From a virus, in the IMG/VR virus record IMGVR_UViG_3300050015_000188, positions 1-31,699 of that record: DNA of 31,699 bases. One strand, written 5' to 3'. The notes under the pieces were generated by a model, which did no database searches, had not been told where the DNA came from, and worked only from the letters and a program-made list of their open reading frames with translations. Each line of letters begins with the position of its first letter. Position 1 is the stretch's first letter. Below are positions 3,386-17,015 of the stretch, in pieces. A program made the translations under genes and the position numbers.

Positions 3386-3968
3386 AAGAACGAGTAAAAA
3401 AGAATGTGAATTTAGGACATTTCCATTTGAGATTCGCGAAATCCAAAATGCAGATACCGGCGCGACTGAAATGTTCGTAGAGGGCTACGCGTGTTTGTTC
3501 AATCAGCCATATGATATGGGTTGTTATAACGAAGTAGTTACTCCTGACGCCTTCAAGAGTGCAGATATGACAGATGTAATATTTAACTACAATCATCGCG
3601 GTAAAGTTATGGCAAGAACTCGTAATAAAACACTCGAACTGTCAATTGATGGCATGGGATTATTTATGCGTGCAAAACTTGACGGTACTGAGGGTGGCCG
3701 AGAAATGTTTGAAGTAATCAAAGGCGGTTATATTGACCGCATGAGTTTTGCTTTTACTGACAAAGTATATAACTTTGATGAATCTACAGACACAAGAACT
3801 ATTAGCAACATTAGTAAAGTTTGGGATGTTTCGGCGGTGGATTTTCCCGCTAATGATAAAACCTCAATAAGCGCAAGGAGTTTTGACGAAGCGGTTGCTG
3901 AAGCAAAACAGAAAGCCCTGGACAGAGCCAAATTGCGTAAGAAGTTACTCATTAAAACGAAACTGTAA
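3369..3968 (+). CDS. Prohead maturation protease (HK97 / S78 family)
   Basis: EGYACLFNQPYDMG, NYNHRGKVMART, IDRMSFAF and DVSAVDFPAN motifs. ATG 3369 is preceded by AGGAGG. The ORF track start at 3324 is probably too early. Confidence 0.9.
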   Translation: MILTNERTSKKECEFRTFPFEIREIQNADTGATEMFVEGYACLFNQPYDMGCYNEVVTPDAFKSADMTDVIFNYNHRGKVMARTRNKTLELSIDGMGLFMRAKLDGTEGGREMFEVIKGGYIDRMSFAFTDKVYNFDESTDTRTISNISKVWDVSAVDFPANDKTSISARSFDEAVAEAKQKALDRAKLRKKLLIKTKL

Positions 3969-4060
3969 CAAGACATTTGGATAAATGTTGGAAACAAACG
4001 CGGGCGCTAAAGGCGTCTATTTTATTACAAAAATTTTAAACAAAAAAAGGAGAAAACAAA

Positions 4061-5218
4061 ATGAAATTTACACTAGCAGAGATCGAAAAAAGAATGGCAG
4101 AAATCGGCACAGAAATTGAAACAAACGATGCAGCGGATTTAGAAGCACTTGATACTGAAATCGCTGAATTGAGAGCAGAAAAAGAATCGCACGAAAAAAG
4201 AGAGAAACTACTTAATGATGTCAAAACAAATAAAGCAGCCACTCGTAAGATTGATGGACCTGCTGAAGTTGACGAAAAGAAAAACGCAGCCGAAGAGAGA
4301 GGAAAAACTCTCAAGGAAAAAAGAGCAATTACGGTTGGTAATTCACAAATCGTACTACCGGCATTTACCTCAACTGATATTAAACCCACTTTCAACGAAG
4401 TATCAACATTATTTGATGCAGTCGGGAAAAAAGTATTTGTGGGTGGAGAAAGCTTTGAACAGTCATATGTTGATGGGTATGGCGAAGGTGACTACACTGA
4501 CATAAGTTCAGATTCCGATTATAACGATGTTGAGACAGTAACTAAGTTTGCCTCAGTTACTAAGTCAAAAATCACAGCATACAGTGAAGATCCTGAAGAA
4601 GTATTGAAACTTGCAAACGCAGACTATGACGGTGAAATCACAAAAGGCATATCAATTGCAATCAAAAAGAAGTTGAGTAAACAAATACTTACCGGCCCAG
4701 GTACAGCCGGAACATTTGTTGGAATTTTCAGCGCACTTGCAACCGCAATTGACGACACAAAAGATATTCCAATTACCGCAATTGACGAAAACACGCTTGA
4801 CAATATTGTTTACAAGTATGGTGGAGATGAAGACGTACAAAACGATGCAGCGCTGATACTCAATAAACTTGATCTTTATGAGTTCGCAAAAGTTCGCGGA
4901 ACAGAGAATAAGCAAAAAGTTTACAAGATTGTAAACAATGGAAACAGCGGTACCATTGACGGTATTCCATTTATCTTGAACAGCGCTTGCAAATCTCTTG
5001 CAGCGGAAACAACATCAGAAGGTGACTATTGCATGGCCTATGGTTCAGTAAGCAACTACCTAGTTGCAGTATTCTCTGATCTTGAAATATTACGTTCAAT
5101 TGATTACAAATTTAAGCAGGGGCAAATTGCACACAGAGGTTCAATATTTGCCGGCGGAAACGTTGTAGCCAAGAACGGATTTGTAAGAGTAACAAAAGGC
5201 GGAACACCAAGCGCATAA
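4061..5218 (+). CDS. Major capsid protein (HK97 fold) with N-terminal coiled-coil delta/scaffold domain
   Basis: 385 aa. The first ~100 aa are charged coiled coil (cleavable delta domain), followed by a Phage_capsid-like body. AAGGAG RBS, position after the protease. Confidence 0.93.
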   Translation: MKFTLAEIEKRMAEIGTEIETNDAADLEALDTEIAELRAEKESHEKREKLLNDVKTNKAATRKIDGPAEVDEKKNAAEERGKTLKEKRAITVGNSQIVLPAFTSTDIKPTFNEVSTLFDAVGKKVFVGGESFEQSYVDGYGEGDYTDISSDSDYNDVETVTKFASVTKSKITAYSEDPEEVLKLANADYDGEITKGISIAIKKKLSKQILTGPGTAGTFVGIFSALATAIDDTKDIPITAIDENTLDNIVYKYGGDEDVQNDAALILNKLDLYEFAKVRGTENKQKVYKIVNNGNSGTIDGIPFILNSACKSLAAETTSEGDYCMAYGSVSNYLVAVFSDLEILRSIDYKFKQGQIAHRGSIFAGGNVVAKNGFVRVTKGGTPSA

Positions 5219-5233
5219 AAGGGGGATAAACGA

Positions 5234-5518
5234 ATGCTTGACAAAATTAAAGAAGTTCTAAGAATTACAACAGACGATTTCGACCAAGAAATCAGCGACC
5301 TAATCGAAGCGTGCAGAAGTGATTTGAAATTGTCAGGCGTTTCCCAAACAAAAATCAATAGAGATACCGACCCGCTAATAAAGCGGGCGGTATCTGTCTA
5401 TTGTAAAGCACATTTTGGATTTGATAATCCCGATTTTGACAAACTCACACAGTCTTACGATTCAATTAAAAAAGAGATGGTAATCTCGAGCGAATACACA
5501 ACGGAGGTGAGCGTCTAA
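5234..5518 (+). CDS. Head-tail connector (gp6-like DNA-packaging/connector protein)
   Basis: 94 aa. The LRITTDDFDQEISDLIEACRSDL pattern is typical of the gp6-like connector family. Position after the major capsid protein. Confidence 0.7.
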   Translation: MLDKIKEVLRITTDDFDQEISDLIEACRSDLKLSGVSQTKINRDTDPLIKRAVSVYCKAHFGFDNPDFDKLTQSYDSIKKEMVISSEYTTEVSV

Positions 5519-5829
5519 TGCTGTTCAGAGACGTTATATTTTACATTGGTAAATCAGATATTGACATTGATGAAATTGGGATCCCGACAAATACACCTAA
5601 CAAGATAAAAGCATTTGCCAACAAAAAATCAATCCGACAAAGTGAGTTCTACCAAGGACAAGGCGTAGGGTGGAAGCCCGAATTGATGTTTGAAGTGCGT
5701 ACAGAAACCTACAAGGGTTATGAAAAGTTGACATATAAAGACATCAATTACAACATCATACGCACCTACACGAAGAATGGTGAGATCACAGAACTTATCT
5801 GTTCTCAACACGCAAGAGGTGAGGAATAA
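5518..5829 (+). CDS. Head-tail adaptor / head closure protein (SPP1 gp16 / HK97 gp9-like)
   Basis: 103 aa, ATGA-type coupling to neighbours, YKDINYNIIRTY C-terminal pattern. Confidence 0.65.
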   Translation: MLFRDVIFYIGKSDIDIDEIGIPTNTPNKIKAFANKKSIRQSEFYQGQGVGWKPELMFEVRTETYKGYEKLTYKDINYNIIRTYTKNGEITELICSQHARGEE

Positions 5830-6320
5830 TGGCAATACCTTCCCCGGTAAAAATAAAGAAAAATGGTGTTGAGTACATTTCCAATGTTGATCGAGTAAAT
5901 TATACATTTAAACAACTTGTAAAAGCAGCGCTTAAAGAAACAGGAAAACTTATCCGCAAAAGAACTAGGCAAGGGATTCACAAAAGAACCGGCAATTTAG
6001 CAAGATGGGTCAAAGCAAAAGTATCATACAACGCTAGCCTTGAAGAACATGAAGTACAAATAGGATTTGTCAAAGAATCAAAGGATAAAGGGAAAACTGC
6101 TCGTTCTAAAAGTGGTGGTAAAGAACGTTTTGGATTTTATGGGGCATTTCAAGAGCTTGGTACCTCGAAAGAACCTGCAAGACCAATATTAAAACCATCT
6201 GCATTGAATAACATTTCAGAAATCAGAACAATTCAAGGCAAATTTTTATCAGCCATTGAAAATGAATCAAAAGCGTTAGGACTAATTGACGAGGGAGATG
6301 ATATAGATGACAACGATTGA
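5829..6320 (+). CDS. HK97 gp10-family tail-component protein
   Basis: 163 aa, TGNLARW and EPARPILKPS motifs typical of the family, synteny. Confidence 0.7.
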   Translation: MAIPSPVKIKKNGVEYISNVDRVNYTFKQLVKAALKETGKLIRKRTRQGIHKRTGNLARWVKAKVSYNASLEEHEVQIGFVKESKDKGKTARSKSGGKERFGFYGAFQELGTSKEPARPILKPSALNNISEIRTIQGKFLSAIENESKALGLIDEGDDIDDND

Positions 6321-6705
6321 GCTGCAGAAGAGCATAGTTGAGGTCCTAATAAAGTGTACTCCCAAAGTTTTTTATGAATCAGCTGATCAAGAGGCTGATT
6401 TTCCTTATATTGTATACGATTTTATCGGTGAAATACCCGATTATGAATCACAAAAAGATAAAATACTGCTTGAAATTGATTGTTGGAGTAACAAAACTGA
6501 TTCAAGAGAAGTTGAATCAATCGCAGATGCCGTTATTGGCAATAGAAATAGATTAAATACTTCCGGACTGGATCAGTTGCTTGTAACTAACAACAACTTT
6601 TCGGCAAGATTTTACTTAGACAACAAGCAAAACATACCTGATCCGTCACCTGATATAAGACGGCGAAAATTAACATTTGAAATACAAATTTTTTATATAA
6701 ATTAG
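6307..6705 (+). CDS. Tail terminator / tail completion protein (DUF3168-like)
   Basis: 132 aa, FPYIVYDF motif, position immediately upstream of the major tail protein. Confidence 0.5.
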   Translation: MTTIELQKSIVEVLIKCTPKVFYESADQEADFPYIVYDFIGEIPDYESQKDKILLEIDCWSNKTDSREVESIADAVIGNRNRLNTSGLDQLLVTNNNFSARFYLDNKQNIPDPSPDIRRRKLTFEIQIFYIN

Positions 6706-6735
6706 ACAAAATAAAACCATTAGGAGGACTAAAAA

Positions 6736-7566
6736 ATGTTCAGAAGAAATGTAACAGTGCAGGAAGTAGAGAATGTGCAGATTGATTCCGGAATAATCTA
6801 TGTCAATTATGTTGCCGGCGCCAAAAGAGAAATAGGACTGACAAAAGGCGGTTCAGAATTTTCCGTCAAACAAGAAATAAGACAGATAGAGCATGACGGC
6901 GCTATGGGTGATGAAAAAGGAATGGCAAGAATCACTAAAGTTGAGGCAAAAATCAAGTGTTCGTTACTTGCTATGATCCTTGAAAATTTAAAACTTGCTT
7001 TACCCGGAACAACACTTGAAAACAGTGTGCTAAGCGGAGCAACAACCGGGGTAATCGCCGAGGAAGATTATGTAAATGACTTAACGATCATCGGTCAGAC
7101 TGTAGCCGGATTTAAAAGAATAACAATTTTCAATGCTCTCGGCAGCGGATCCATATCAATTAAATCAAAAGACAAAGACGAAGCAGCGTTTGATGTTGAA
7201 ATGAGCGGCACATTCGATCCTCAGGATTCAACACAATCAATGTGGGAGATAGAAGATTTAGAATCATACCCAGGTAACCTGTCAAACGCATGTCTTGTCG
7301 TAACATCAACTATCCCTGCAAGCGCTACAATCGGTGCTGACACCATAACAGCTAATGTAGTCAATGGTACATCAAGTATCACTATCAATGTAGCACCAAG
7401 CACAGGGGCAACATGGAAGCTATACAGCAATGTAAACTGCACAACAGAGATTGCAAACAAGGTTTGGGCATTATCCGTTGGTGCAAACACAACCTATATC
7501 AAAGTTATTGCAGAAGATAAGGCTACAAGCAAAATCTATGCAGTAACCGTCACAAGGGCGGCCTAA
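6736..7566 (+). CDS. Major tail protein with C-terminal cadherin-like/Ig-like beta-sandwich domain
   Basis: 276 aa, AGGAGG RBS, position before the chaperone pair. The C-terminus ...NTTYIKVIAEDKATSKIYAVTVTRA matches the cadherin-like beta-sandwich signature. Confidence 0.8.
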   Translation: MFRRNVTVQEVENVQIDSGIIYVNYVAGAKREIGLTKGGSEFSVKQEIRQIEHDGAMGDEKGMARITKVEAKIKCSLLAMILENLKLALPGTTLENSVLSGATTGVIAEEDYVNDLTIIGQTVAGFKRITIFNALGSGSISIKSKDKDEAAFDVEMSGTFDPQDSTQSMWEIEDLESYPGNLSNACLVVTSTIPASATIGADTITANVVNGTSSITINVAPSTGATWKLYSNVNCTTEIANKVWALSVGANTTYIKVIAEDKATSKIYAVTVTRAA

Positions 7567-7567
7567 T

Positions 7568-7900
7568 ATGAGAAAATTACAAACATCAGACATATATCTG
7601 CTCTCTGAAATCATTGACAAATTGGATATTGATCCGGATGAATTAAAATTGCCTGAAGGAACTACCAAGGAGACTGAAACTGCTGCACAAAATAACATCG
7701 GCATTAAGCTAATGTTTTTAATTGCAAAAAAAGCATACAAGGCAAAGGATGCAATCAATCAACTGCTTGCAGAAGTTACAGAAAAAAGCGTTGCAGAGAT
7801 TGAAAAAGCGCCGTTTGGTGAAACATTCAACTTGTTAAAAGAGATTTTATCACAAGAGGAAGCAATAAGTTTTTTCAAGTCAAAACTCAAGTCGGAATAA
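7568..7900 (+). CDS. Tail assembly chaperone (gpG analogue)
   Basis: 110 aa acidic protein between the major tail protein and the tape measure. Contains a slippery heptamer near its 3' end. Confidence 0.75.
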   Translation: MRKLQTSDIYLLSEIIDKLDIDPDELKLPEGTTKETETAAQNNIGIKLMFLIAKKAYKAKDAINQLLAEVTEKSVAEIEKAPFGETFNLLKEILSQEEAISFFKSKLKSE

Positions 7901-8229
7901 AATACTCTGAGATAATCCGTATCTTGTCACAGTATGATTTGGGTTACATCATGGGGTTACCATTAAAAATAGTGGTAACCCTTTTAATTGACGGAATTGA
8001 AAACGAACAGCGGAAGCAAGCAAAAGAAAAATACATGACACTATACCCGCATATGTTAGTACCTGAAGGCATGACCGGTGATCCTCCGATTAGCTATTTT
8101 TCATTTGATGAATATTGGGAAAACCTGAAAAAAAGGACACCGAAAGAATTACCTGAAAGTGATGAAGTAACTTTAGCAAGATTAAGAAAAGCAGAAAAAA
8201 GCGGAAAGTATTGGAATAGAGGTGATTGA
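7568..8229 (+). CDS. Tail assembly chaperone frameshift fusion (gpGT analogue): 7568-7876 joined by a -1 shift to 7876-8229, about 220 aa
   Basis: The -1 frame is open from 7819 to 8229 and overlaps the G ORF. It has no ATG or RBS of its own before 7924. Confidence 0.65.
7870..7876 (+). promoter_or_regulatory. -1 programmed ribosomal frameshift slippery heptamer T TTT TTC
   Basis: The zero frame reads AGT TTT TTC, so X XXY YYZ = T TTT TTC. A -1 slip enters the open frame that continues to 8229. Confidence 0.7.
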
Positions 8230-9974
8230 CTTTGGCAACGGAAATATTCAGACTATTTGGATCAGTTTTTGTAAATGAAAAAGACGCAACCGGTTCATTA
8301 AGCAAGATTGACGAAAAAGGCAAAGGTGTTCATAGCACTATGGGTGGAATGGTTGCCGGCGCCGCCAAAGTTGGAATTGGAATCGCAGTAGGGTTAGCGG
8401 GTGGTATAGCTGCAATAGGAGCGATGGTAATGAAGTCAGCTGACGCAGCTGAAGGCATAAAAGTAATGGGCGAAAAGTACGGAATGTCCACTGACAAAAT
8501 TCAAGAAATGCAGTATACATCTAAAAAACTCGGTATTGAAATGGACACATTCACCGGCGCCCAGGGCAAATTTACAAAGGCAATGGCGGCAGGAGAAACA
8601 GCAACAAGTGCCCAGGGAAAAGCATTCAAAGAACTTGGCATACACTTAACCGATAACAAAGGTAACTTGAGAGATAGACAGCAAGTTATGGCTGAATCAA
8701 TTGACGCTCTTGGAAAAATGACAAATGAAACTGAACGTGATGCACTTTCAATGAAACTTTTCGGCAAGTCTGCACTAGAAATGAATCCTATAATCAAGGC
8801 TGGCGGTAAGGCATTAAATGACATGGCAGCGGAAGCACATGCAAACGGCGCAGTAATGAGTGAATCATCTGTAAACGGCCTTGCAAGTTTCAAAGAGAAT
8901 TTTGAAGCTGCAAAACAAGTAGTAACGGGTTTTCTCGGTGAACTAGCGGGAAGTTTATCGCCGTACCTTAAGAAAATGCAAGAATGGTTCACGGAAAATA
9001 TGCCAATGATAAAACAAAAAGTAACGGAAGCATTTGAAAAAATAAAAAGTGTAATAGAACCGTTATTGCCAACTATTGGGGAGCTGATCGGAAGGGGATT
9101 TAATGCATTAGGGAATGTTCTTTTATTTGTTGGCAACCTAATATCAGTAGGAACTCAATTTTATAAAGATCATGCTGATGTTATAAATACCGTTGCGATA
9201 ATCATAGGCTCTTTAGTTGCTGCAATATGGTTAGTAACGACCGCTGTTTCAATATGGACAGGTGTTCAATGGTTATTAAACATTGCCATGGATGCAAACC
9301 CAATAGGACTAATAATTCTTGCAATCGCAGCCTTAATAGCAATTGTGGTCCTACTTGTTATGAATTGGAGTTCAATTATCCCATTTTTCCAAGGACTATG
9401 GGACAATGTTCAAGCCATTTTTTGGGGATTTATAGGGTTTATTCAACAAGCATTTTGGACTGCAGTTGGCAATATTCAGCAATCGTTTTGGGGAATCATA
9501 GGATTTTTCCAAAGTCTTTGGGGCAACATAGTAGGTATTTTTGTTGGCGTAGGACAGGCAATCGGCAACGCTGTCACAGGAGCATTTAAAGGTGCAGTAA
9601 ACACAGTTTTAGGAACTATAGAAGGTGTTATCAACAATTTTATAAACATGATTAACGGAGTCATAGGGGTTATCAAGAACATACCCGGCACCGACGGGCT
9701 TGGGTATATTAACACACTGCAACTTCCAAGACTTGCAAAAGGCGGAAATATAACAGAAGGCGGACGTGTTGTAGTGGGTGACGGTGGAAACGGCAGCGGA
9801 ACCGAGATAGTTGATTTGCCAAAAGGGGCAAGAGTAACACCACTCGGCAGGGAATCAAATCAATCCGGTATGCCGGCAATAATTATTAACTATCCAATGT
9901 TACTGAATGACCAAGCAGTTGATGAACTAGGCAATCTAATAACAAAACATTTGAGATTATCGGGGGCAATGTAA
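8226..9974 (+). CDS. Tail tape measure protein
   Basis: 582 aa with an alpha-helical N-terminal half, central hydrophobic/TM-like segments and W/F periodic repeats. Start is TTG 8226 or, with better spacing to GAGGTGA, TTG 8232. Confidence 0.88.
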   Translation: MTLATEIFRLFGSVFVNEKDATGSLSKIDEKGKGVHSTMGGMVAGAAKVGIGIAVGLAGGIAAIGAMVMKSADAAEGIKVMGEKYGMSTDKIQEMQYTSKKLGIEMDTFTGAQGKFTKAMAAGETATSAQGKAFKELGIHLTDNKGNLRDRQQVMAESIDALGKMTNETERDALSMKLFGKSALEMNPIIKAGGKALNDMAAEAHANGAVMSESSVNGLASFKENFEAAKQVVTGFLGELAGSLSPYLKKMQEWFTENMPMIKQKVTEAFEKIKSVIEPLLPTIGELIGRGFNALGNVLLFVGNLISVGTQFYKDHADVINTVAIIIGSLVAAIWLVTTAVSIWTGVQWLLNIAMDANPIGLIILAIAALIAIVVLLVMNWSSIIPFFQGLWDNVQAIFWGFIGFIQQAFWTAVGNIQQSFWGIIGFFQSLWGNIVGIFVGVGQAIGNAVTGAFKGAVNTVLGTIEGVINNFINMINGVIGVIKNIPGTDGLGYINTLQLPRLAKGGNITEGGRVVVGDGGNGSGTEIVDLPKGARVTPLGRESNQSGMPAIIINYPMLLNDQAVDELGNLITKHLRLSGAM

Positions 9975-11936
9975 ATGAGATCGATTAAAATAAATAACAC
10001 AACATTACCCTACGGTTATCTCAAATCTTGGAGCATCTCAGACAAAATCAACACCAATTCAACCATGTCATTTGCGATCAATGACCTTAAAAAAGCAGGT
10101 TTTACACTTAATGTTGGCGACGGCATGCCAGTTGAACTTTGGAACTGCTACGGATTACCTAATCTAATCCCCGCTTCAAATGACTTTACAGTGAATTGGG
10201 GAGAACGAAATGGGTCCGCCATAGTAGTATCCAATCTCGGCGACCAAAGAGGATTAAATAACGCAACTGAACTGTCATTTGTTGCAAATAATTGGAAAGA
10301 TGACATGGCAAGGGTCATTACAGGGCTAACAGTTGGAGAAACATATATTATCAGTTTCTTTGCCAAAGTTGGAACAGCAAGTAATTTCGTTATGTCATTA
10401 GAAAATGGATCCGGTGTTGGATGGAATTATCTGACAAATGGCCAAATAGTAGTTACCTCGCCCGCTTGGCAAAAATATTCAAAGGCATTTGTAGCACCAA
10501 GCACTGGGAAAGTTGCTATATTTTTCGGCAGCAATGCGTTAAGCGGAGGTGTAAATCAAACTTCAGGCACGACCTATATTGCCTATCTTAAACTGGAATT
10601 AGGCAGCTGTGCCACTGATTGGATTCCACATATGGCCGACATTGATTTAGATAACCCAGACAAATTATTTGCCGGCATAATAAACCAACCGGAAAAGTCA
10701 GAAACCATGCCGGGTTTCATTGAGTACAATATCTCGGCATCAGACAACACCGCCATTGCCAACAGGCGAAGAGTTGCAGCCACAACTGAATGGCATCATT
10801 GTGATGTCATTATAAATGACTACATTTTGCAGACATTAGAACAAGAGGGAATCACTGCCGGCATAATAAGACAAGGTGCATTGGTATCAAAGGCAACATT
10901 CAACTACTGCACAGTAGCAGAGGCTATGAAACAACTCTGTGACCTATCAAGTTTTAACTGGTATATAGATGTAGACAAAAAGTTGAACTTTATGCCAAAC
11001 AACGAAATAGAATCGCCGTGGACATTAGATGATTCAGTACAACATAATGTATTTCAACAAAAACAAAGCTCAATCCAATACCGAAATACTCAATATGTTA
11101 AGGCAGGCAAGACAGAAACTGCGCTTCAGGAGCTTGAATACACCTCACCACAGCCTGACGGAACAGCAAAAGCCTTTACTTTGCGTTTTCCGGTAGCAAA
11201 AAAACCTCAACTATTCAATAACTCAGGCGAAATTGACCCAGGAACAATAGGAGTTGACGGAATAGACAAGGAAAAAGCCTTCTATTTCACTTTCGGGAGT
11301 CCGATTATCACATGTGATGCCGCACCGGACAATGGCAGTGGGTTACAAGCAACATATACCGGGCTGCGTAATCTATTTACCAAGGCAGAAGACCTTATTT
11401 CTATAGCAAACAGAGCAGAGAAAGAAGGTTCAGGCAGCGGAAGATACGAAGCAATTGATATTAAGGAAGATTTGGTGACACAACAATCAGTTCAAGACTT
11501 CGCATCATCACAATTGTACAAATATAAACAGATTGAAGACAAAATTTCATTCAAAACAGAAAAACCCGGATTAAGAGCGGGACAATTACTGCCTGTAATA
11601 AAGCCATTATTCGGAATTAATGAAAAATTTCTTGTTGAATCAGTGGGAATTGTTCCAATCGATGCCAATACTATCGAATATTCTATAAATGCACTTAACG
11701 GAATCAGTCTAGGAGGTTGGGAAACGTACTTTAAAAAGATTATTGGAGACAGTCAGGCAGGTTCAATTAGCCCGGATGATGTGATAGTTGAATATAAAGA
11801 CCTATCTGAAGACATAAAAACATCAACAAACTACACATATTCCCGGATAGCAGATCTAAAATGCGGAACATCAGTAAAATGCGACACGGATTTATATCCG
11901 GGATCATACACGAAAGCGGGTAATTTAAATGAATAA
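9975..11936 (+). CDS. Tail-tip/baseplate hub-like protein (Dit/Tal-like) with inserted CBM-like jelly-roll domain
   Basis: 653 aa directly after the tape measure. LFAGIINQPE and LCDLSSFNWYIDVDKKLNFMP resemble hub (gp27/gpD-like) signatures. Residues ~60-225 end in YLKLELGSCATDWIP, typical of carbohydrate-binding insertions in Gram-positive phage tail proteins. Confidence 0.6.
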   Translation: MRSIKINNTTLPYGYLKSWSISDKINTNSTMSFAINDLKKAGFTLNVGDGMPVELWNCYGLPNLIPASNDFTVNWGERNGSAIVVSNLGDQRGLNNATELSFVANNWKDDMARVITGLTVGETYIISFFAKVGTASNFVMSLENGSGVGWNYLTNGQIVVTSPAWQKYSKAFVAPSTGKVAIFFGSNALSGGVNQTSGTTYIAYLKLELGSCATDWIPHMADIDLDNPDKLFAGIINQPEKSETMPGFIEYNISASDNTAIANRRRVAATTEWHHCDVIINDYILQTLEQEGITAGIIRQGALVSKATFNYCTVAEAMKQLCDLSSFNWYIDVDKKLNFMPNNEIESPWTLDDSVQHNVFQQKQSSIQYRNTQYVKAGKTETALQELEYTSPQPDGTAKAFTLRFPVAKKPQLFNNSGEIDPGTIGVDGIDKEKAFYFTFGSPIITCDAAPDNGSGLQATYTGLRNLFTKAEDLISIANRAEKEGSGSGRYEAIDIKEDLVTQQSVQDFASSQLYKYKQIEDKISFKTEKPGLRAGQLLPVIKPLFGINEKFLVESVGIVPIDANTIEYSINALNGISLGGWETYFKKIIGDSQAGSISPDDVIVEYKDLSEDIKTSTNYTYSRIADLKCGTSVKCDTDLYPGSYTKAGNLNE

Positions 11937-12393
11937 TTTAGAAAAACATCAGGGAATTTGGCATGTATATCGCAATGGCGAACTATTTGATGTTGTAAAA
12001 AACAAAATAACAGATCTTGCACTCAATAACCTGATTGCTGCACTGTACACGACACCGGTGAAAATGAATATAAAATATCTTGCTATTGGCAATTCCTCAA
12101 CACCGGACAATGGTACGGCCGGCAAACTCGGGAACGAAATATTCAGAACCGCCTTTACTACAACACCAAACAAAGTATCAACCGGAAAGGTAGTGTCGGG
12201 GTTTACTATATTAGCAAGCGAAGCAATTGGAACGTGGGAAGAGATCGGACTATACGGTGACGGAGATTCTCCACATCAAGCAACATCAACAGTGGATTCA
12301 GGTCTATTAATAAGCCGGATATTGTGGCACCACAGCAAAAACAGTAGTGAAGAATTTACGTTTGTTAGAACAGATCAGATTGTGAGGGGATAA
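11929..12393 (+). CDS. Tail-associated protein of unknown function
   Basis: 154 aa, overlaps the upstream stop, in tail module synteny. No family recognised. Confidence 0.55.
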   Translation: MNNLEKHQGIWHVYRNGELFDVVKNKITDLALNNLIAALYTTPVKMNIKYLAIGNSSTPDNGTAGKLGNEIFRTAFTTTPNKVSTGKVVSGFTILASEAIGTWEEIGLYGDGDSPHQATSTVDSGLLISRILWHHSKNSSEEFTFVRTDQIVRG

Positions 12394-12396
12394 AAA

Positions 12397-12942
12397 ATGG
12401 CATATACAAAAACAGTCCATACTGATGGAGTAACACCGTTGGATGCAGCAAACGAAAATCATAAAGAACAGGGGATTTATGATGCTCATGCTGCGGCGGC
12501 AACAGCAGACACAAAAGCTGTAAATGCTCAAAATTCCGCAAACTCCGCTGCTCTTGTAATAGACAACCACGACTCAAATATCGAAAATCCCCACAAAGTT
12601 ACATGTGAACAAGTTGGATTTCATTATGCAACCTATGTGGGCCTAAATGGAACAACCGCACAATATCATTTTGATATTCGAATTATGAGAAAACCCACAC
12701 TCGGACAAAATCTTTTTATGGGGATAATCACATTTGGAGATGATTATCCATATGACGGAACCGCGGAACCGGTAATCCGAATTACCGAAGCCGTTACGAA
12801 CGATAGTGTGGGAGATTTTACCTGTAAAGCAATGACCGGAGAAAACTTGAGTACCACCACTGCCTTCATAGCAGAATATACACATTTAGTATATTTTAAC
12901 AATTTAAATCATACAGCAATATTCCTAAATATTAGGGAATAA
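12397..12942 (+). CDS. Short tail-fibre-like protein
   Basis: 181 aa. GVTPLDAANENHKEQGIYD and NIENPHKVTCEQVG resemble N-terminal motifs shared by many phage fibre proteins. Confidence 0.5.
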   Translation: MAYTKTVHTDGVTPLDAANENHKEQGIYDAHAAAATADTKAVNAQNSANSAALVIDNHDSNIENPHKVTCEQVGFHYATYVGLNGTTAQYHFDIRIMRKPTLGQNLFMGIITFGDDYPYDGTAEPVIRITEAVTNDSVGDFTCKAMTGENLSTTTAFIAEYTHLVYFNNLNHTAIFLNIRE

Positions 12943-12944
12943 CA

Positions 12945-13370
12945 ATGAACATATCTCGACAATTCCGCAAGGAATACAAGGCAAGGGAAAAACTGTGTAA
13001 GCAAATAAAAAAACTTGAGGGAGATAATAACATGGGAGACAAGACAATCGAACAGATCGTAGCAGAAACGATGGAAAAATCAACAGAGAGAACAGCACAA
13101 TTATTGGCGGAGGGAGCAGTTGCTGCAGCAAAGGTTTTAGCAGAAGCCAATTCTGATAATGGAGTGCAAATTGCAGTACTGCAAACAAATGTGAATAATT
13201 TACAGTGCCAACTCGAAGCGGTAGAGAAAAAAACAGACAGTATATTTGCAAAACTCGAAGATATTATTAAAGGTCGACCAACTTGGGCGGTTGCTGGGTC
13301 TCTTGCATTCATGGGTACATTATGTGGCATCTTAGCGACGGCCTTGGCAATGGTATTAATTAATAAATAG
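12945..13370 (+). CDS. XhlA-like lysis-associated membrane protein (coiled coil plus C-terminal TM)
   Basis: 141 aa. Coiled coil VLQTNVNNLQCQLEAVEKKTDSIFAKLEDI is followed by TM WAVAGSLAFMGTLCGILATALAMVLI. Located immediately before the holin. An alternative start is ATG 13032. Confidence 0.5.
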   Translation: MNISRQFRKEYKAREKLCKQIKKLEGDNNMGDKTIEQIVAETMEKSTERTAQLLAEGAVAAAKVLAEANSDNGVQIAVLQTNVNNLQCQLEAVEKKTDSIFAKLEDIIKGRPTWAVAGSLAFMGTLCGILATALAMVLINK

Positions 13371-13385
13371 GGAGGAGGAAAGATC

Positions 13386-13568
13386 ATGCAAAATCGATTT
13401 AGAAGTCCGGTAGTATGGGGAGCGACAGCAGCAGTTGTTGGTGCACAGTTGGTAGCATTATCACAAACTGTTCCACTAACAGGCTGGAGTATCGCGATCG
13501 CAGTAACGACCGTGGTAGTAGCATTCTTTGCTGCGCTTAACAATCCCGAAAATAAAGACGGAGTATAG
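13386..13568 (+). CDS. Holin (small, two hydrophobic segments, charged C-terminus)
   Basis: 60 aa, GGAGGAGG RBS, two TM-like segments, located directly before the endolysin. Confidence 0.7.
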   Translation: MQNRFRSPVVWGATAAVVGAQLVALSQTVPLTGWSIAIAVTTVVVAFFAALNNPENKDGV

Positions 13569-13578
13569 GAGAAAAAGA

Positions 13579-14580
13579 ATGGACATTCAAAACAAATTTA
13601 TAAACCTATGTAGTAAATACAATCTGACGATTCAATTTGATTGGATTGAACCAAACCCATATTCAAGACCTCAGATTCCATTGAAGAAGATATTAAAGAT
13701 TGCATGGCACTGGACTGGCAACCCGAATACGACAGGAATTAACAACGCCAATTACTTCAAGAATCTGAAGAACACGCACACAACGTATGCTTCACCACAT
13801 TTTGTTGTTGGTCTTCAAGGTGAGTTAATCCAGTGTGTCCCACTGAATGAAGAGGCATACACCACCAATCAAGCAAACAGTTACTCGGTTGGAATAGAAG
13901 ATTGCATACCGACGGCAGACGGACATTTTAACCCAGCGACACTGCAGACGATGATATTGTTAGGAGCGGTATTAAATGAGTTATGTGGACTGAATCCCAT
14001 GAATGACAATATCAGACACTATGACGTAACCGGTAAGGTATGTCCTAAGTGGTTCGTAGATAACGCAGCAGACTGGATAGTATTCAAGCAAGCAATAGCG
14101 GACAAAATGTGGTCCGTTAATCATAGGGCAGAACCACCGCCTGTAGTAGTTCCGCCAGCAGTTGTAATTGAACCACCAAAAAATTCGGAGGTATATGAAA
14201 TCATGGCTAATACATTTAAGGAATTAATTATCCAGTACGGCGAAGCAGCAGTAGTCGGAGGAGTAGAGCAAGTTATTAAAGCGCAACAGTTTGGGAAATC
14301 ACTTGATAGCGGAACTACATTCCTGAAATTAAATGGTTATATAACCAGCGACCATAATCCAGATGAACTCATGACAGTTGCAGAGTTTGGTGTTATGGAA
14401 CGTAATAAACTAACTGCAATAGATCAGTTACCAGAATCAGGTTGGGCAGCCGCAGCAATGGCAAAGGCGAAATCAAGTGGATTACTTAAAGGCGATGAAC
14501 ATGGAAATCTCTTACCTAAGAAAAATATAACAAGAGAAGAGTTTGCACAAGCACTTAGCAATATTGGTTTAATAAAATAG
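13579..14580 (+). CDS. Endolysin: N-acetylmuramoyl-L-alanine amidase (Amidase_2/PGRP-like) with Pro-rich linker and SLH-like C-terminal repeats
   Basis: IAWHWTGNPNT, HFVVG, GIEDC and HYDVTGKVCPKWF amidase motifs. Linker AEPPPVVVPPAVVIEPP. C-terminus SGWAAAAMAKAKSSGLLKGDEHGNLLPKKNITREEFAQAL is SLH-like. ATG 13579 has an AGGAG RBS, so the ORF track start at 13528 is unlikely. Confidence 0.85.
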   Translation: MDIQNKFINLCSKYNLTIQFDWIEPNPYSRPQIPLKKILKIAWHWTGNPNTTGINNANYFKNLKNTHTTYASPHFVVGLQGELIQCVPLNEEAYTTNQANSYSVGIEDCIPTADGHFNPATLQTMILLGAVLNELCGLNPMNDNIRHYDVTGKVCPKWFVDNAADWIVFKQAIADKMWSVNHRAEPPPVVVPPAVVIEPPKNSEVYEIMANTFKELIIQYGEAAVVGGVEQVIKAQQFGKSLDSGTTFLKLNGYITSDHNPDELMTVAEFGVMERNKLTAIDQLPESGWAAAAMAKAKSSGLLKGDEHGNLLPKKNITREEFAQALSNIGLIK

Positions 14581-14593
14581 ATGGAGGCACCTC

Positions 14594-16090
14594 ATGATTA
14601 AAATTAACATAATGGGTCAAGCAGCTCTCAAAATCAACTTTCCAAAACTCGTATCAGGTGCAATCAAGTTTGTCAAAGCAGAGTTCACATTTGACGACTC
14701 TTGGGATGGCCTTAATTTAACGTATCAATTTACCAACGGAACGGTGACAAAAAATAGGGTTACAAACGAAACAACGATTGATGTTCCCCATGAAGTAATG
14801 ATACCCGGAACGCTTACAGTAAAAGTCATCGGAACGCAACTGAATGAAGCGGGAAATATAATTGTCACAAAAGGCACAATGCTTCCTCTTGAATATGATG
14901 TTACCGATAGTGGAATTGTTGATAATGCCGAAGATAGTGAAGACCCAACCCCAACTGTAACAGAACAGATAAGGAATATTGCCACAAATGCCGAAGAAAT
15001 TGCTCAAGGTGTTAGAGAAGATGCGGATGCCGGAGTATTTAATGGCAAAGATGGAGCAGATGGTACAAATGGTACAAATGGTACAAACGGTACAAACGGA
15101 GCAGACGGTACTAATGGAATTGATGGAGAAGATTACATTTTAACAGGACAAGATAAAGAGGATATTGCAGTTTTAACAGCGCCACTTGTTGAAATACCAA
15201 CATCAATAACCGAACGATTAACAGCAATAGAAAATAAAGAACTAAATAAGCAACAATATATTCAATGTTCAGGTAATTTTTCATATTCACAACCACCATG
15301 TCTAAACGTAACCCAAGATTCGCAATTCATAATTACTTGCAATCAAAGAAGTATGATATCTCAAGGAATTGCAAATAATTATTTTATATTTCCATTAGGT
15401 GTAGATGAGTTGGCATATGGTTTTGAAATTTGGGGTGATATTACATTTTTAGATTTATCAAGTTGTGCAGGATTAACAGCAGTTTCTTGTGTAAATTTAA
15501 CCATACTTGATTTTATAAATTGTCAGATAAATACAAATGAGCATCTTTCATTAGATACAGCACCAAACATCACATCATTTCATGCCACTTTCAAAAATTT
15601 AGTGAATTTACAAGTCTGTCCTAAACTTGTTACGCTCGATGTAGGCGGGTTAGGTGAAGGTGGATTAACAAACTATGCAAAACCAACTTTAATATATGTA
15701 AGTATTTTCGATATGACAAATCAAACTTGGGATTTTACAGGTTGTACATTACTCAGTTTAATTTCTTTTCATGATACATACGCTTCAATAGGTAATATAA
15801 TATTAAGTGATAGTCCTTTATTGACAGAGTTAGATTTATCAAATTTGAGTAGCCTTGAAGTATTAGCACTCGCACAATTTGCAAATGTACCAACAGGTGA
15901 TACAGGCTTCAAAGCTTTGAATATATTGAACACAAATTTATCACAGGAATATATTTTAGCGAGTATAGTACCAAAGTTACCAACAAGAAACGCAACAAGT
16001 TACGGAACATTAACAATATCGAGCGATGCAGATGGACTAATAGCAACAGAACTCGCTTCAAAGTATTGGAATGTTGTGTTACCAAACTAA
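14594..16090 (+). CDS. Collagen-like (G-X-Y)10 stalk protein with C-terminal leucine-rich-repeat domain (candidate fibre/adhesin)
   Basis: 498 aa, GGAGG RBS 13 nt after the endolysin stop. GKDGADGTNGTNGTNGTNGADGTNGIDGED spans aa 151-180. LRR-like LxxLxLxxC/N repeats run from about aa 270 to 470. Confidence 0.8.
   Translation: MIKINIMGQAALKINFPKLVSGAIKFVKAEFTFDDSWDGLNLTYQFTNGTVTKNRVTNETTIDVPHEVMIPGTLTVKVIGTQLNEAGNIIVTKGTMLPLEYDVTDSGIVDNAEDSEDPTPTVTEQIRNIATNAEEIAQGVREDADAGVFNGKDGADGTNGTNGTNGTNGADGTNGIDGEDYILTGQDKEDIAVLTAPLVEIPTSITERLTAIENKELNKQQYIQCSGNFSYSQPPCLNVTQDSQFIITCNQRSMISQGIANNYFIFPLGVDELAYGFEIWGDITFLDLSSCAGLTAVSCVNLTILDFINCQINTNEHLSLDTAPNITSFHATFKNLVNLQVCPKLVTLDVGGLGEGGLTNYAKPTLIYVSIFDMTNQTWDFTGCTLLSLISFHDTYASIGNIILSDSPLLTELDLSNLSSLEVLALAQFANVPTGDTGFKALNILNTNLSQEYILASIVPKLPTRNATSYGTLTISSDADGLIATELASKYWNVVLPN
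15062..15097 (+). repeat. Tandem 9-bp repeat GGTACAAAY x4 inside the collagen-like coding tract (15044-15133)
   Basis: The sequence reads GGTACAAAT GGTACAAAT GGTACAAAC GGTACAAAC, encoding GTN x4. Confidence 0.95.
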
Positions 16091-16119
16091 TTAGATTGTA
16101 ATTATATCCGGATAAAAAT

Positions 16120-16146
16120 AAGCCCCTTAACTGGGGCTTTTTTTGT
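16120..16146. terminator. Bidirectional rho-independent terminator
   Basis: Stem AAGCCCC / GGGGCTT (7 bp, 6-nt loop) is followed by a T7 run on + and preceded by an A-rich run (T-rich on -). It lies between the convergent genes ending at 16090 (+) and 16201 (-). Confidence 0.85.
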
Positions 16147-16200
16147 TGCTCTAAATGATACTCTGTATGGTTGGAAATAACTGTGAAGCTGTGAAAGAGC

Positions 16201-16434
16201 CTATATAGGCCATTTATTACCGCAGTACTGACATAGCGCAATTGTACGGTTATCAAATGCAACTCTCCCCGATTCTTTTCTTTTGCCTATAATTAGCCAA
16301 AGACCACCTGTGCAGACTATCAGACAAAATCTACCAATAGAATACAGACAGCCGGCTTTCCTTATTTTTGTTTTGCCTCCAACTTGCTCTGTGGTGATTA
16401 TCACATTTTCACTCCCACATTTTGAGCATATCAT
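16201..16434 (-). CDS. Small zinc-ribbon-like protein with central hydrophobic segment (moron)
   Basis: 77 aa. CSKC at the N-terminus and CQYC at the C-terminus flank LYSIGRFCLIVCTGGLWLIIG. Has its own promoter and GAGG RBS and ends at the bidirectional terminator. Confidence 0.6.
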   Translation of the reverse strand: MICSKCGSENVIITTEQVGGKTKIRKAGCLYSIGRFCLIVCTGGLWLIIGKRKESGRVAFDNRTIALCQYCGNKWPI

Positions 16435-16464: not shown

Positions 16465-16493
16465 AGTCTACCATTTTGATTTTAAATTGTCAA
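16465..16493 (-). promoter_or_regulatory. Sigma-A-type promoter for the 16434-16201 gene
   Basis: The minus strand reads TTGACA, 17 nt, then TGgTAGACT (extended -10). It sits about 30 nt upstream of the start codon. Confidence 0.6.
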
Positions 16494-16529
16494 ATAGTTA
16501 TAAATAATTTGTAAAATCAACATGTAGTG

Positions 16530-16558
16530 TTGCAAGGGCAATTTCAAAGTGATATCAT
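16530..16558 (+). promoter_or_regulatory. Sigma-A-type promoter facing the 48-codon ORF
   Basis: TTGCAA, 17 nt, then TGaTATCAT (extended -10). It is divergent from the promoter at 16465-16493. Confidence 0.5.
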
Positions 16559-16609
16559 TTTCCCATAAAGAACGTATGTTCTACAAAATGATAAGGACAG
16601 GTGACGGAA

Positions 16610-16756
16610 ATGCAATTAGCACTTAATATTAACAACCATAAAATACTAGAAGTGGAGGCAAAACTCAAAAATACATTGAACGCTGAACAAATAAAATTGT
16701 TCTTAGAATATGAAGAATTGATTTGTGAGAGGGAAATGATACTTTCGAGCGACTAA
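16610..16756 (+). CDS. Hypothetical 48-aa protein (below the ORF-track cutoff)
   Basis: ATG 16610 to TAA 16754-16756 gives MQLALNINNHKILEVEAKLKNTLNAEQIKLFLEYEELICEREMILSSD. Promoter upstream, weak RBS. It ends 4 nt before the first arm repeat. Confidence 0.35.
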   Translation: MQLALNINNHKILEVEAKLKNTLNAEQIKLFLEYEELICEREMILSSD

Positions 16757-16760
16757 TTCC

Positions 16761-16782
16761 ACCCACTATTTACCCACTATCT
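16761..16782 (+). repeat. Arm-type repeat pair (ACCCACTAT x2), left side of candidate attP
   Basis: ACCCACTATTTACCCACTATCT matches 16994-17015 at 21 of 22 positions in direct orientation. Confidence 0.7.
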
Positions 16783-16993: not shown

Positions 16994-17015
16994 ACCCACT
17001 ATTCACCCACTATCT
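16994..17015 (+). repeat. Arm-type repeat pair (ACCCACTAT x2), right side of candidate attP; overlaps the integrase stop codon
   Basis: ACCCACTATTCACCCACTATCT is a direct repeat of 16761-16782. Confidence 0.7.

Follow-up and report, generated by a model that had tools for sequence, protein, structure and literature searches.

The window, that is the whole stretch of 31,699 nt analysed here, comes from a temperate phage with a Gram-positive (Bacillota) host. With at most 63% TerL identity to prophages of many genera, the host was placed no finer than Bacillota. The lysis region starts with two holin-like genes on the plus strand (12945..13568), encoding a 141-aa protein with a C-terminal TM segment and a 60-aa protein with a TM segment (KD of the hydrophobic segments 2.24 and 2.14). 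They are followed by an endolysin gene (13579..14580, plus strand), the product of which contains an Amidase_2 domain and a C-terminal SLH wall-binding domain (Pfam, 2.3e-15 and 1.8e-8; PHROG endolysin, 1.3e-30). Its start is likely the ATG at position 13579, which is preceded by AGGAG, and not the TTG at 13528. The endolysin ORF ends at 14580, and after a gap of 13 nt an ORF of 498 aa begins with ATG (14594..16090, plus strand; named fibre gene below). Rereading confirmed these coordinates and the RBS that had been noticed from the sequence alone, a GGAGG at 14583..14587 on the plus strand, 6 nt 5’ of the ATG. The fibre ORF ends 30 nt before a strong bidirectional intrinsic terminator (16120..16139; a hairpin whose 7-bp stem has 5 GC, with a T-run after it; it can be read on the minus strand as well), the sequence of which is conserved in the related contig L001. 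It closes the late operon, and the fibre gene is indeed the last gene before it. The gene thus lies 3’ of the holins and the endolysin, and not in the tail module downstream of TMP/Dit/Tal; for a tail fibre, this post-lysis slot is atypical.

The fibre gene is located in the interval from the lysis genes to the integrase/attP region, a classic site of morons, and the sequence-only reading had considered this role. In that case a prophage-expressed LRR adhesin would alter the surface or the adhesion of the lysogen, which would agree with the position, the own terminator downstream, the foreign GC3 of the distal 400 codons described below, and the fact that BspA-family proteins are bacterial surface adhesins. 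However, a consensus scan revealed no sigma-70-like promoter on the plus strand between position 13300 and the fibre ATG (approximately 1.3 kb), and no plus-strand terminator was found in this interval, so that none follows the endolysin gene, to which the fibre gene is coupled by only 13 nt. Further, the fibre protein contains no signal peptide, TM segment, LPXTG motif or SLH anchor and should therefore be unable to reach the cell surface or to stay there, and its N-terminal 180 aa are homologous to phage tail-module proteins. Together these observations speak against lysogenic conversion, which we consider quite unlikely.

The proposed three-part architecture of an anchor-type N-terminus, a collagen tract and an LRR part was upheld by domain analysis. 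The N-terminal beta-rich domain (aa 1-110; 14594..14923, plus strand), the presumed virion anchor, is common to the proteins P0001, P0004, P0008, P0016 and P0028 and shares 53% identity with P0001. It matches phrog_25979 (6e-14) and phrog_19695 (2e-8), while Pfam, NCBIfam and PDB gave no match and no described anchoring family was hit; PDB sequences queried with the N-terminal profile gave no match either. The N-terminus is a phage structural-module domain, but its suggested resemblance to anchors of Gram-positive phage fibres and baseplates was not supported by a match to any described family in Pfam, NCBIfam or PDB. A conserved linker with the pattern TP..QI...A..VREDADAGVFNG (aa 111-150; 14924..15043, plus strand; conserved columns in alignments A1 and A4) runs into the collagen-like tract (aa 151-180; 15044..15133, plus strand). 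The latter consists of exactly ten uninterrupted G-X-Y triplets without proline, and a 9-bp tandem repeat (15060-15111; 4-5.6 copies according to TRF) accounts for part of them, so that both the number of triplets and their repetitive origin were correctly recognised before. With ten proline-free triplets the tract is rather short to form a triple helix that is stable, which counts against the collagen stalk proposed below. Owing to this shortness, the Pfam Collagen model PF01391 scores below its cut-off (E 4.3e-4, 20.4 bits; cut-off 27.2). Relatives have longer tracts, with 27 triplets in P0001 and a PF01391 match of 2.5e-12 in the homologue from a Ruminococcus phage. The tract is followed by a neck (aa 181-275; 15134..15418, plus strand), in which AF2 predicts, with a pLDDT below 55, a helix spanning aa ~203-216 (19-32 in the numbering of the C-terminal construct); a Cys-containing segment comes next. 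For the neck, neither a word-indexed search of 5.8e9 proteins nor exhaustive phmmer returned homologues.

Judged by homology, the C-terminus forms an LRR of divergent BspA/DUF285 (“PARCEL”) type and ends in a DUF285-type cap. A phmmer search of 1.84 billion proteins with the LRR part gave as best match P0035, a protein with eight LRR_5 stretches (E 4.9e-11), and also found the DUF285 proteins P0037 (2.9e-4) and P0039 (6.4e-4). In hhalign, the window sequence alone matched a DUF285-only alignment with 97.1% (E 4.8e-11, 166 columns). As sequence matches these are far above chance expectation; they cover aa ~325-496 including the cap, and they corroborate the assignment as LRR that had been made by eye. 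The extent and the period of the repeats had to be corrected, however. The irregular LRR region revealed by phmmer and hhalign (aa 276-450; 15419..15943, plus strand) does not span ~300 aa, since it is preceded by the neck and followed by the cap, and its approximately 7-8 repeats measure 19-24 aa and not 22-25 aa. The core motifs ITFLDL, LTILDF, ITSFHA, LVTLDV, LIYVSI, LSLISF, LTELDL and LNILNT are spaced by 19, 24, 19, 21, 21, 23 and 21 residues; several are preceded by C/S/A-P/T/V, and the hydrophobic core is of an irregular LxxLxLxx(N/C)xL type. The cap (aa 451-498; 15944..16087, plus strand) is conserved in alignment A2, has a pLDDT of 84-96 and carries the motif LPTR...YGTL.ISS....A.KYWNV. 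Its residues L278, P279, R281, G287, T288, K306 and W308 (numbering of the C-terminal construct) are invariant in A2.

No Pfam LRR match was obtained with the C-terminal part even at E<=1, nor any NCBIfam or PHROG match, and the curated cut-offs of PF13306, PF03382 and TIGR02167 were not reached. The word-indexed search of 5.8e9 proteins with this part was also without match, and the relatives mentioned above emerged from the exhaustive HMMER search alone. The AF2 model of the C-terminal construct (46-sequence MSA; mean pLDDT 60.4, pTM 0.58) is confident in the last ~110 aa only, where strands and helices alternate; aa 185-275 and several loops are below 50, and a full-length single-sequence model had a pLDDT of 31. 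Comparison of the model by Foldseek, which had been recommended as a check of the fold, pointed in the expected direction without reaching significance: nearly all top matches in PDB and BFVD are LRR proteins, and the best E values are 0.1 and 0.028. The closest relative of the LRR cap, P0036, is 44% identical over the last ~110 aa, which comprise the final LRR turns and the cap.

The base composition changes along the gene. Between codons ~60 and ~130 the GC3 of the fibre gene drops from ~0.40 to ~0.15, and the maximum-likelihood change-point is at codon 96 (nt ~14880; 0.375 to the left, 0.172 to the right). While the first ~95 codons are native-like, the GC3 for aa 185-498 is 0.172, and the other genes have values of 0.25-0.37. 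Every 150-codon window in the C-terminal part is in the range of 0.13-0.20 and thus under 0.207, the minimum among 367 windows of this size in the 24 other ORFs of the window. The distal ~400 codons are thus compositionally foreign, consistent with an acquired head. The AT-rich shift described earlier for the LRR-coding part is therefore real, but it starts well before the position 15230 given for it. A recent recombination breakpoint within the N-terminal part relative to P0001 was ruled out by the even identity of 43-57%, and because of this evenness the comparison with P0001 leaves the change-point at codon 96 unexplained.

The N-terminal domain, the linker and the collagen tract are the common part of a small family of phage proteins whose heads are unrelated. 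Its members share aa 1-~180 and then diverge fully, with heads that include a beta-helix-like repeat and an SGNH hydrolase. A conserved N-terminus joined to unrelated C-termini is a hallmark of modular phage fibres, and the comparison of related phages thus agrees with the suggestion that the exchange of heads takes place beyond the collagen tract. In every case the relatives are encoded beside lysis genes, and mostly they occupy the final position of the tail module. In contig L002 the order is Dit, Sipho_Gp37, an LRR_5 protein, P0008, holin and amidase. In the Ruminococcus phage NatCom_23091 the TMP is followed, after other genes, by a minor tail gene, the gene for an LRR_5 protein, the homologue, a 151-aa gene syntenic with the L002 holin, and the endolysin gene; an LRR_5 protein within the tail module is found in Ruminococcus (Heliusvirales) phages. 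In L003 and L004, P0004 is followed by an 82-aa gene and an M23 peptidase. The phage contig L005, which encodes the LRR-cap relative P0036, has the order Dit, a Gp37-like gene, a 289-aa gene, P0036, a 124-aa gene and a holin. Thus, the last slot of the tail module is occupied elsewhere by N-domain homologues (L002 and L087) and by an LRR-cap homologue (L005), which favours the earlier idea of a displaced receptor-binding fibre. An N-terminal anchor common to P0036 and the window protein was ruled out (hhalign, 0.1%). Since P0036 combines the LRR cap with a different N-terminus in a tail module, the LRR head recurs on other phage tail-module proteins.

Close relatives of the fibre protein are rare in databases. 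An exact-sequence look-up gave no record, tblastn against 50,697 phage records gave no match at 1e-5, and megablast of the first 12 kb of the window against phage records was also without match. No close relative was found in 5.8 billion proteins, in IMG/VR, in JGI metagenomes or in 185k species genomes scanned with the fibre protein, and a two-sequence N-terminal profile detected no relatives in IMG/VR and the metagenomes. This extreme rarity would be expected for a decaying mosaic remnant without current function, as would the irregular repeats missed by the Pfam models. On the other hand, the 498-codon ORF is intact and has a good RBS, the cap residues invariant in distant relatives are retained, the N-terminal part matches P0001 with even identity throughout, and an identical genome was recovered in an independent run. 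Decay is thus a very improbable explanation. The independent recovery was revealed by an exact look-up of the 60-aa holin, which retrieved the same phage only (100% identical, run SRR35915826); as the contig of that run stops inside the endolysin gene, further cassette variants were not obtained from it. The holin-like gene used as probe in IMG/VR gave no match.

The comparison with L001 was the most informative one. In this contig P0001, the closest relative of the fibre protein, is encoded directly 3’ of an Amidase_2 endolysin. The holin-like proteins of the two phages are 99% (141 aa) and 98% (60 aa) identical, and blastn showed 92% DNA identity in the upstream flank (12944-13596). The downstream flank (16114-16222) is 83% identical to L001 3515-3626, and the downstream DNA overall shows 83-96% identity. 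Between these flanks (13597..16113, plus strand) the interior is weakly aligned, in the 5’ part of the fibre gene only. Although the flanks are conserved, the endolysin gave no BLASTP match to the L001 amidase, and the fibre protein is ~52% identical to P0001 over 180 aa of the N-terminal part, with an unrelated head. Dissimilar endolysin and fibre genes between near-identical flanks indicate, for the one relative contig available, that the two genes form a replaceable cassette in which the endolysin gene is the first. Since the fibre gene is swapped together with the endolysin gene, it most likely represents an uncharacterised kind of host-recognition module.

The tight coupling to the endolysin and the exchange with it, together with the adjacency of all family members to lysis genes, would also be compatible with a non-structural late protein which is released at lysis and acts with the endolysin. 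Such a protein could bind debris, mask receptors or target the lysis machinery; the debris could be of wall or S-layer origin, and masking of receptors on lysed cells would spare the progeny. However, the layout of an anchor, a collagen stalk and a swappable head is that of a fibre and is unlike known lysis accessory proteins, and in other phages the genes for the homologues precede the holin gene and close the tail module. We regard a lysis-associated role as improbable.

Whether other proteins of this phage recognise the host has also to be considered. The view that there is no long fibre upstream needs to be qualified, since a 653-aa protein encoded after the tape measure contains a CBM_4_9 / GTA-spike-fibre carbohydrate-binding domain and the 181-aa last tail gene, too, is variable between close relatives. 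The CBM-bearing tail protein and this small variable gene product could be the actual receptor-binding proteins. If these are the primary adhesins, the fibre may be a virion-displayed adhesin aimed away from the receptor, at animal mucus or extracellular matrix, at other cells or at a biofilm matrix, and retain the phage at host sites in a BAM-like manner. In favour of this, the head is a member of the BspA/DUF285 family of surface proteins, in which bacterial LRR proteins are surface adhesins, the nearest relatives of the endolysin are in human faecal phage contigs, and Ruminococcus gut phages possess related modules. Co-exchange with an endolysin specific for the bacterial wall fits a bacterial target better, and we think that an off-receptor role is unlikely.

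Taken as a whole, the sequence evidence leads us to favour an LRR-headed fibre or adhesin of the virion, encoded by a slightly displaced gene, and not a moron. The balance tips slightly towards a structural role of the gene product in the phage particle, as a fibre or adhesin which is composed of an anchor, a collagen stalk and an LRR head and is swapped with the endolysin. As part of the particle, the N-terminal ~110-aa domain would dock the fibre to the tail or the head of the virion, with the tail tip as the most likely site. Trimerisation of the linker and of the ten G-X-Y triplets would give a short collagen-like stalk, followed in each chain by the neck and a BspA/DUF285-type LRR head with its conserved cap. 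A trimeric stalk with one head per chain would display three heads in a collectin-like bouquet, which may recognise some component of the cell envelope of the host. Being the last gene of the late operon, the fibre gene would be transcribed by read-through from the endolysin gene. The usual order is tail, fibre, holin and lysin, and the fibre gene would have moved across the lysis genes. The endolysin and fibre genes represent one ~2.5-kb cassette exchanged by recombination between the conserved flanks. Joint exchange implies that the specificities for entry (the fibre head) and for exit (the wall-binding domain of the endolysin) would change together, and it is tempting to speculate that the two are adaptively coupled. 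That the LRR solenoid, triplicate on its collagen stalk, is the working receptor-binding head and forms such an entry-plus-exit cassette with the endolysin is plausible, although we consider it still on the doubtful side. In an even less conventional variant, the BspA-like head may have a non-bacterial ligand (mucosal or matrix components) and not one of the bacterial host.

This proposal is of interest for several reasons. Receptor-binding proteins set the host range of phages and are the phage parts most often re-engineered. Among the head folds described so far, beta-helices, beta-sandwiches, lectin-like knobs and enzymatic domains predominate. LRR domains are, to our knowledge, normally monomeric and rarely described as receptor-binding modules of phages, which speaks against the proposal. 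The earlier statement that LRR heads are uncommon in siphophage receptor binding was thus right in so far as no experimentally characterised phage LRR receptor-binding protein was found in the literature searched (coverage was incomplete and is not proof of absence), but DUF285 repeats are present in ~80 deposited phage genomes, in products that are uncharacterised. If correct, the LRR head would constitute a structural class of phage receptor-binding protein without characterised example and would extend the known head folds by a scaffold which is highly evolvable and binds proteins or glycans. It would also assign a function to the uncharacterised BspA/DUF285 proteins of those phage genomes. 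Further, the cassette with its near-identical flanks amounts to a natural experiment: it exposes the segment swapped when this lineage changes the envelope that it targets, and it suggests that the specificities for entry and exit may be inheritable as one unit. Should virion association not be confirmed, the finding would shrink to an unusual mosaic late gene.

Collagen-like segments are mentioned in reports on streptococcal phage adhesion devices (PMC9437275) and on a Staphylococcus aureus phage baseplate (PMC7048315). With the collagen-containing fibres and receptor-binding proteins of Gram-positive siphophages the fibre protein shares a conserved N-terminus, a short G-X-Y tract and an exchangeable head, as well as late-operon expression (here deduced from the gene order) beside the lysis genes. 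It differs from them by an N-terminal domain outside the described anchoring families, by an LRR head in place of a beta-sandwich, beta-helix, lectin-like or enzymatic one, and by the location of its gene after the endolysin gene instead of before the holin gene. In collectins and C1q, a trimeric collagen stalk with a helical neck presents three independent recognition heads, and avidity arises from weak monovalent binding. Here the likeness is one of function without homology; those heads are C-type lectin or gC1q domains, and the trimer of the fibre protein is a proposal. The position of the gene resembles that of the tailspike gene 9 of Salmonella phage P22, which closes the late region, apart from the remaining tail genes and near the conversion and attP-int region. 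This analogy is positional only, since the P22 tailspike is a beta-helix endorhamnosidase with no collagen stalk and no linkage to an endolysin.

BspA LRR_5 (PF13306) and DUF285/PARCEL (PF03382, TIGR02167) repeats occur in surface proteins of bacteria and of some eukaryotic microbes (PMC2996958). The fibre protein is homologous to these proteins at aa ~325-496 and has the cap LPTR..YGT...A.KYW in common with them, and the BspA/DUF285 family moves horizontally. However, its repeats of 19-24 aa, in contrast to the regular 25-26 aa, stay under the Pfam and NCBIfam thresholds, and in place of a secretion signal and a membrane or wall anchor its LRR domain is joined to the anchor domain of a phage protein and to a collagen stalk. 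For the DUF7941 fibre proteins of the jumbo phage Goslar, LRR/beta-helix domains were predicted (bioRxiv 10.64898/2026.04.21.720040). There, too, LRR-type domains at the end of a fibre protein are proposed to act in host recognition, but Goslar is a myovirus of Gram-negative hosts with an unrelated anchor module, and the LRR role is a prediction.

P0036 from the uncultured phage L005 (57% GC), with its 44% identical last ~110 aa, is in the last-tail-gene slot before the holin gene. It has an unrelated N-terminus and a weak fibritin-foldon-like segment instead of collagen, and its genome differs strongly in composition from the window. In the Ruminococcus phages NatCom_23091 and NatCom_29429 (Ca. 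Heliusvirales) and in L002, the LRR and the collagen fibre are separate proteins encoded before the holin gene, whereas here they are fused and encoded after the endolysin gene, and the identity of the N-terminal domains is ~29%. Nevertheless, these phages share with the window the N-domain family, the collagen tract, the neighbouring lysis genes and a BspA-type LRR within the same adhesion module.

The window is a temperate siphophage genome. Its tape measure gene (8226-9974) is directly followed by the gene of a 653-aa tail protein (9975-11936, plus strand) with a CBM_4_9 / NCBIfam 'GTA head spike fiber' carbohydrate-binding domain at aa ~63-218; the tail-tip genes showed no Pfam domain that could be recognised as Dit or Tal. 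Then come genes for 154- and 181-aa proteins, two holin-like membrane proteins and an endolysin with Amidase_2 and C-terminal SLH domains (13528-14580, plus strand), followed by the fibre ORF, a terminator and a minus-strand tyrosine integrase gene; tRNA genes are absent from the whole window. With the listed TTG start at 13528 the endolysin gene would overlap that of the 60-aa holin, and the ATG at 13579, with AGGAG upstream, is the more probable start. Prophages of many Bacillota genera encode relatives of TerL with no more than 63% identity, and a megablast search with the first 12 kb of the window gave no deposited phage similar at the DNA level, which together point to a Bacillota host with an SLH-binding wall. 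The SLH domain likewise suggests a host with an SLH-binding secondary cell-wall polymer; the phage relatives of the endolysin cover its catalytic half only (47-50% to human faecal phage contigs). Around the 3' end of the integrase gene, the 22-nt direct repeat ACCCACTATTYACCCACTATCT, itself an internal 9-mer duplication, is present at 16761-16782 and 16994-17015 (95% identical). These repeats are candidate arm-type sites of the integrase, which would put attP ~650-900 nt beyond the 3' end of the fibre gene.

As the sequence-only reading had placed it, the fibre ORF extends from an ATG at 14594 to 16090 on the plus strand (498 aa) and starts 13 nt past the endolysin stop (14580), the spacer containing its own GGAGG six bases 5' of the ATG. 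Two further features described in that reading were found again, namely ten uninterrupted G-X-Y triplets (nt 15044-15133, residues 151-180), encoded in part by a 9-bp tandem repeat (15060-15111), and a strong terminator after the ORF, a hairpin with a GC-rich 7-bp stem and a T-run at 16120-16139 which is readable on both strands. Neither a plus-strand terminator nor a sigma-70-like promoter was found from 13300 to the fibre start codon, and transcription of the fibre gene would occur by read-through of the late operon. The protein lacks an LPXTG motif, its N-terminus does not resemble a signal peptide, and none of its hydrophobic segments reaches TM strength. Since promoter, export signal and anchor are all absent, the proposal that the gene is a moron serving lysogenic conversion is disfavoured, and we regard it as quite improbable. 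For a gene adjoining the endolysin, a product released in association with lysis also has to be considered, and is unlikely.

The C-terminal part had no model match in Pfam (E<=1), PHROGs or NCBIfam, and a word-indexed search of 5.8 billion proteins gave no relatives. An exhaustive phmmer search against 1.84 billion representatives revealed five proteins matching it (P0035-P0039). P0035 (E 4.9e-11) contains eight BspA-type LRR_5 stretches, and its LRR_5 unit is aligned repeatedly by the stretch FTGCTLLSLISFHDTYASIGNIILSDSPLLTELDL of the fibre ORF; P0037 and P0039 are DUF285/PARCEL proteins scoring also on LRR_4, LRR_5 and LRR_8, while the small proteins P0036 and P0038 have no family matches. 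The last ~110 aa of the fibre protein align with the DUF285 C-terminal cap, with L, P, R, G, T, K and W invariant; beside this conservation, a decaying remnant seems very improbable. As an independent test, the window sequence by itself was compared by hhalign with an alignment of 14 DUF285 sequences that excluded the query, which gave 97.1% probability (E 4.8e-11, 166 columns, aa 325-496). Core hydrophobic motifs are spaced by 19-24 residues from aa ~283 to ~445. The AlphaFold2 model (46-sequence MSA) is partly confident, with a mean pLDDT of 60 and values of 84-96 across the last ~110 aa, where short strands alternate with helices. Its best Foldseek matches, all below significance, are nearly all LRR solenoids (FBXL2, TLR8, Dia2, NLRPs and ribonuclease inhibitor in PDB; giant-virus and uncultured-phage LRR proteins in BFVD). 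Judged from these comparisons, aa ~276-498 are a predicted divergent BspA/DUF285-type LRR with its cap, and aa 181-275 are a distinct neck with one predicted helix. Of the ~300-aa LRR solenoid proposed earlier, the LRR character is supported by phmmer and by hhalign to DUF285, and the extent has to be reduced.

P0001 (53%), P0004, P0008, P0016 and P0028 have in common with the fibre protein its N-terminal aa 1-~180, which comprise a domain, the linker TP..QI...A..VREDADAGVFNG and the beginning of the collagen tract. The C-termini of these five proteins, which include a beta-helix-like GTSISNCTVGAVSGG repeat and an SGNH-like hydrolase among others, are not related to one another. The shared N-terminal part matches two PHROGs without assigned function, and nothing in Pfam, NCBIfam or PDB sequences. 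P0008 is encoded in the order Dit - Sipho_Gp37 - LRR_5 protein - P0008 - holin - amidase, an arrangement that recurs around the homologue from Ruminococcus phage NatCom_23091 (Ca. Heliusvirales); downstream of the P0004 gene come an 82-aa gene and one for an M23 peptidase. P0036, the closest relative of the LRR cap, has an unrelated N-terminus and lies on a phage contig of 57% GC in the order Dit - Gp37-like - 289 aa - P0036 - 124 aa - holin. Each half therefore occurs separately on last-tail-gene proteins of other phages.

Several of these loci merit description. P0004 (L003 10001-12699 / L004 94-2792) combines the N-terminal domain with a very short G-X-Y tract and a faint SGNH/GDSL match in surroundings which look chromosomal, and with the M23 peptidase may represent a prophage remnant or a domesticated fibre and lysin pair. 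In P0036 (contig L005) the place of the collagen is taken by a DDAPADG.Y.R....WQK motif present in duplicate, which weakly matches Fibritin_C (foldon-like), suggesting that here another trimerisation device carries the same LRR cap. In the Ruminococcus gut phages (Ca. Heliusvirales; L087, the NatCom_23091 type contig, 7641-9008, and L002, the P0008 contig, 3509-4876), the tail-module gene immediately preceding that of the collagen fibre homologue encodes a 455-aa protein; the C-terminal half of this protein is BspA-type LRR_5, and its N-terminal half matches 'tail protein' and 'virion structural protein' annotations in ~100 Paenibacillus larvae phages. Butyrivibrio virus Arian (L088), a small siphophage, carries two adjoining DUF285-type genes (8977-11203; 200 and 537 aa) outside the tail module, a few genes upstream of the endolysin.

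The contig bearing P0001 (L001) is closely related to the window phage, and there too the fibre gene is directly 3' of an Amidase_2 gene. The upstream flanks agree closely (141- and 60-aa holin-like proteins 99% and 98% identical; DNA of window 12944-13596 92% identical), as do the downstream flanks, starting 24 nt past the fibre stop (83% at 16114-16222, 96% at 16478-16617). Between them, the endolysins have no BLASTP match to each other, and the fibres are 52% identical across 180 aa, with unrelated heads beyond and stalks of 10 triplets in the window versus 27 in L001. Conserved flanks around a divergent interior suggest that window ~13597-16113 is a replaceable endolysin and fibre cassette. 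The gene immediately 5' of the conserved holins also differs (181 versus 103 aa, 24% identity), which suggests that host-envelope-related genes vary on both sides while the holins stay constant. This 181-aa gene (12397-12942, plus strand), the last of the tail module, has no family match; its product shows fibre-like motifs by eye (GVTPLDAANENHKEQGI; NPHKVTCEQVG) and may be a second variable host-recognition protein. A 77-aa ORF (16201-16434, minus strand), weakly matching a zinc ribbon, runs towards the bidirectional terminator of the fibre gene from the other side. At its position L001 has an unrelated 93-aa minus-strand ORF in DNA 83-96% identical, so that the 77-aa ORF is another small swapped gene. 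An independent assembly, the Logan SRR35915826 contig (L089), equals window 5386-13718 at 100% identity and ends ~120 nt into the variable cassette; the contig might break there because the cassette is heterogeneous in that sample, or by coincidence.

Base composition also separates the parts of the fibre ORF. GC3 falls from 0.31 (aa 1-150) to 0.17 (aa 185-498), other long ORFs having 0.25-0.37, and no 150-codon window of the distal part reaches even the lowest value among 367 background windows. The AT-rich shift noticed by eye is thus real, with its best single change-point near codon 96 rather than at 15230 or the collagen joint; identity to P0001 is even along the N-terminal part. A donor of lower GC content is the probable origin of the head.

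We somewhat favour a virion fibre, in which the N-terminal domain would anchor the protein to the virion, the collagen tract would trimerise into a short stalk followed by the neck, and three LRR heads would bind a component of the host envelope. That the heads instead serve a virion adhesin for non-host ligands is rather unlikely. With a virion fibre, the usual fibre-holin-lysin order would have been permuted to holin-lysin-fibre, and joint exchange of fibre and endolysin would let entry and exit specificity co-vary.

Modular fibres containing collagen are well known in phages of Gram-positive bacteria. BspA/DUF285 proteins are known surface proteins and horizontally mobile; ~80 deposited phage genomes carry annotated members with no function assigned. 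For jumbo-phage fibres, LRR/beta-helix domains were proposed as recognition elements (bioRxiv 10.64898/2026.04.21.720040). Within our incomplete coverage of the literature we found no phage whose LRR receptor-binding protein has been characterised by experiment, and the Heliusvirales paper does not mention LRR_5/collagen fibre genes. In comparison with these systems, what appears to be new here is the fusion of a putative anchor, collagen stalk and LRR head, its position after the lysis genes and its predicted co-exchange with the endolysin.
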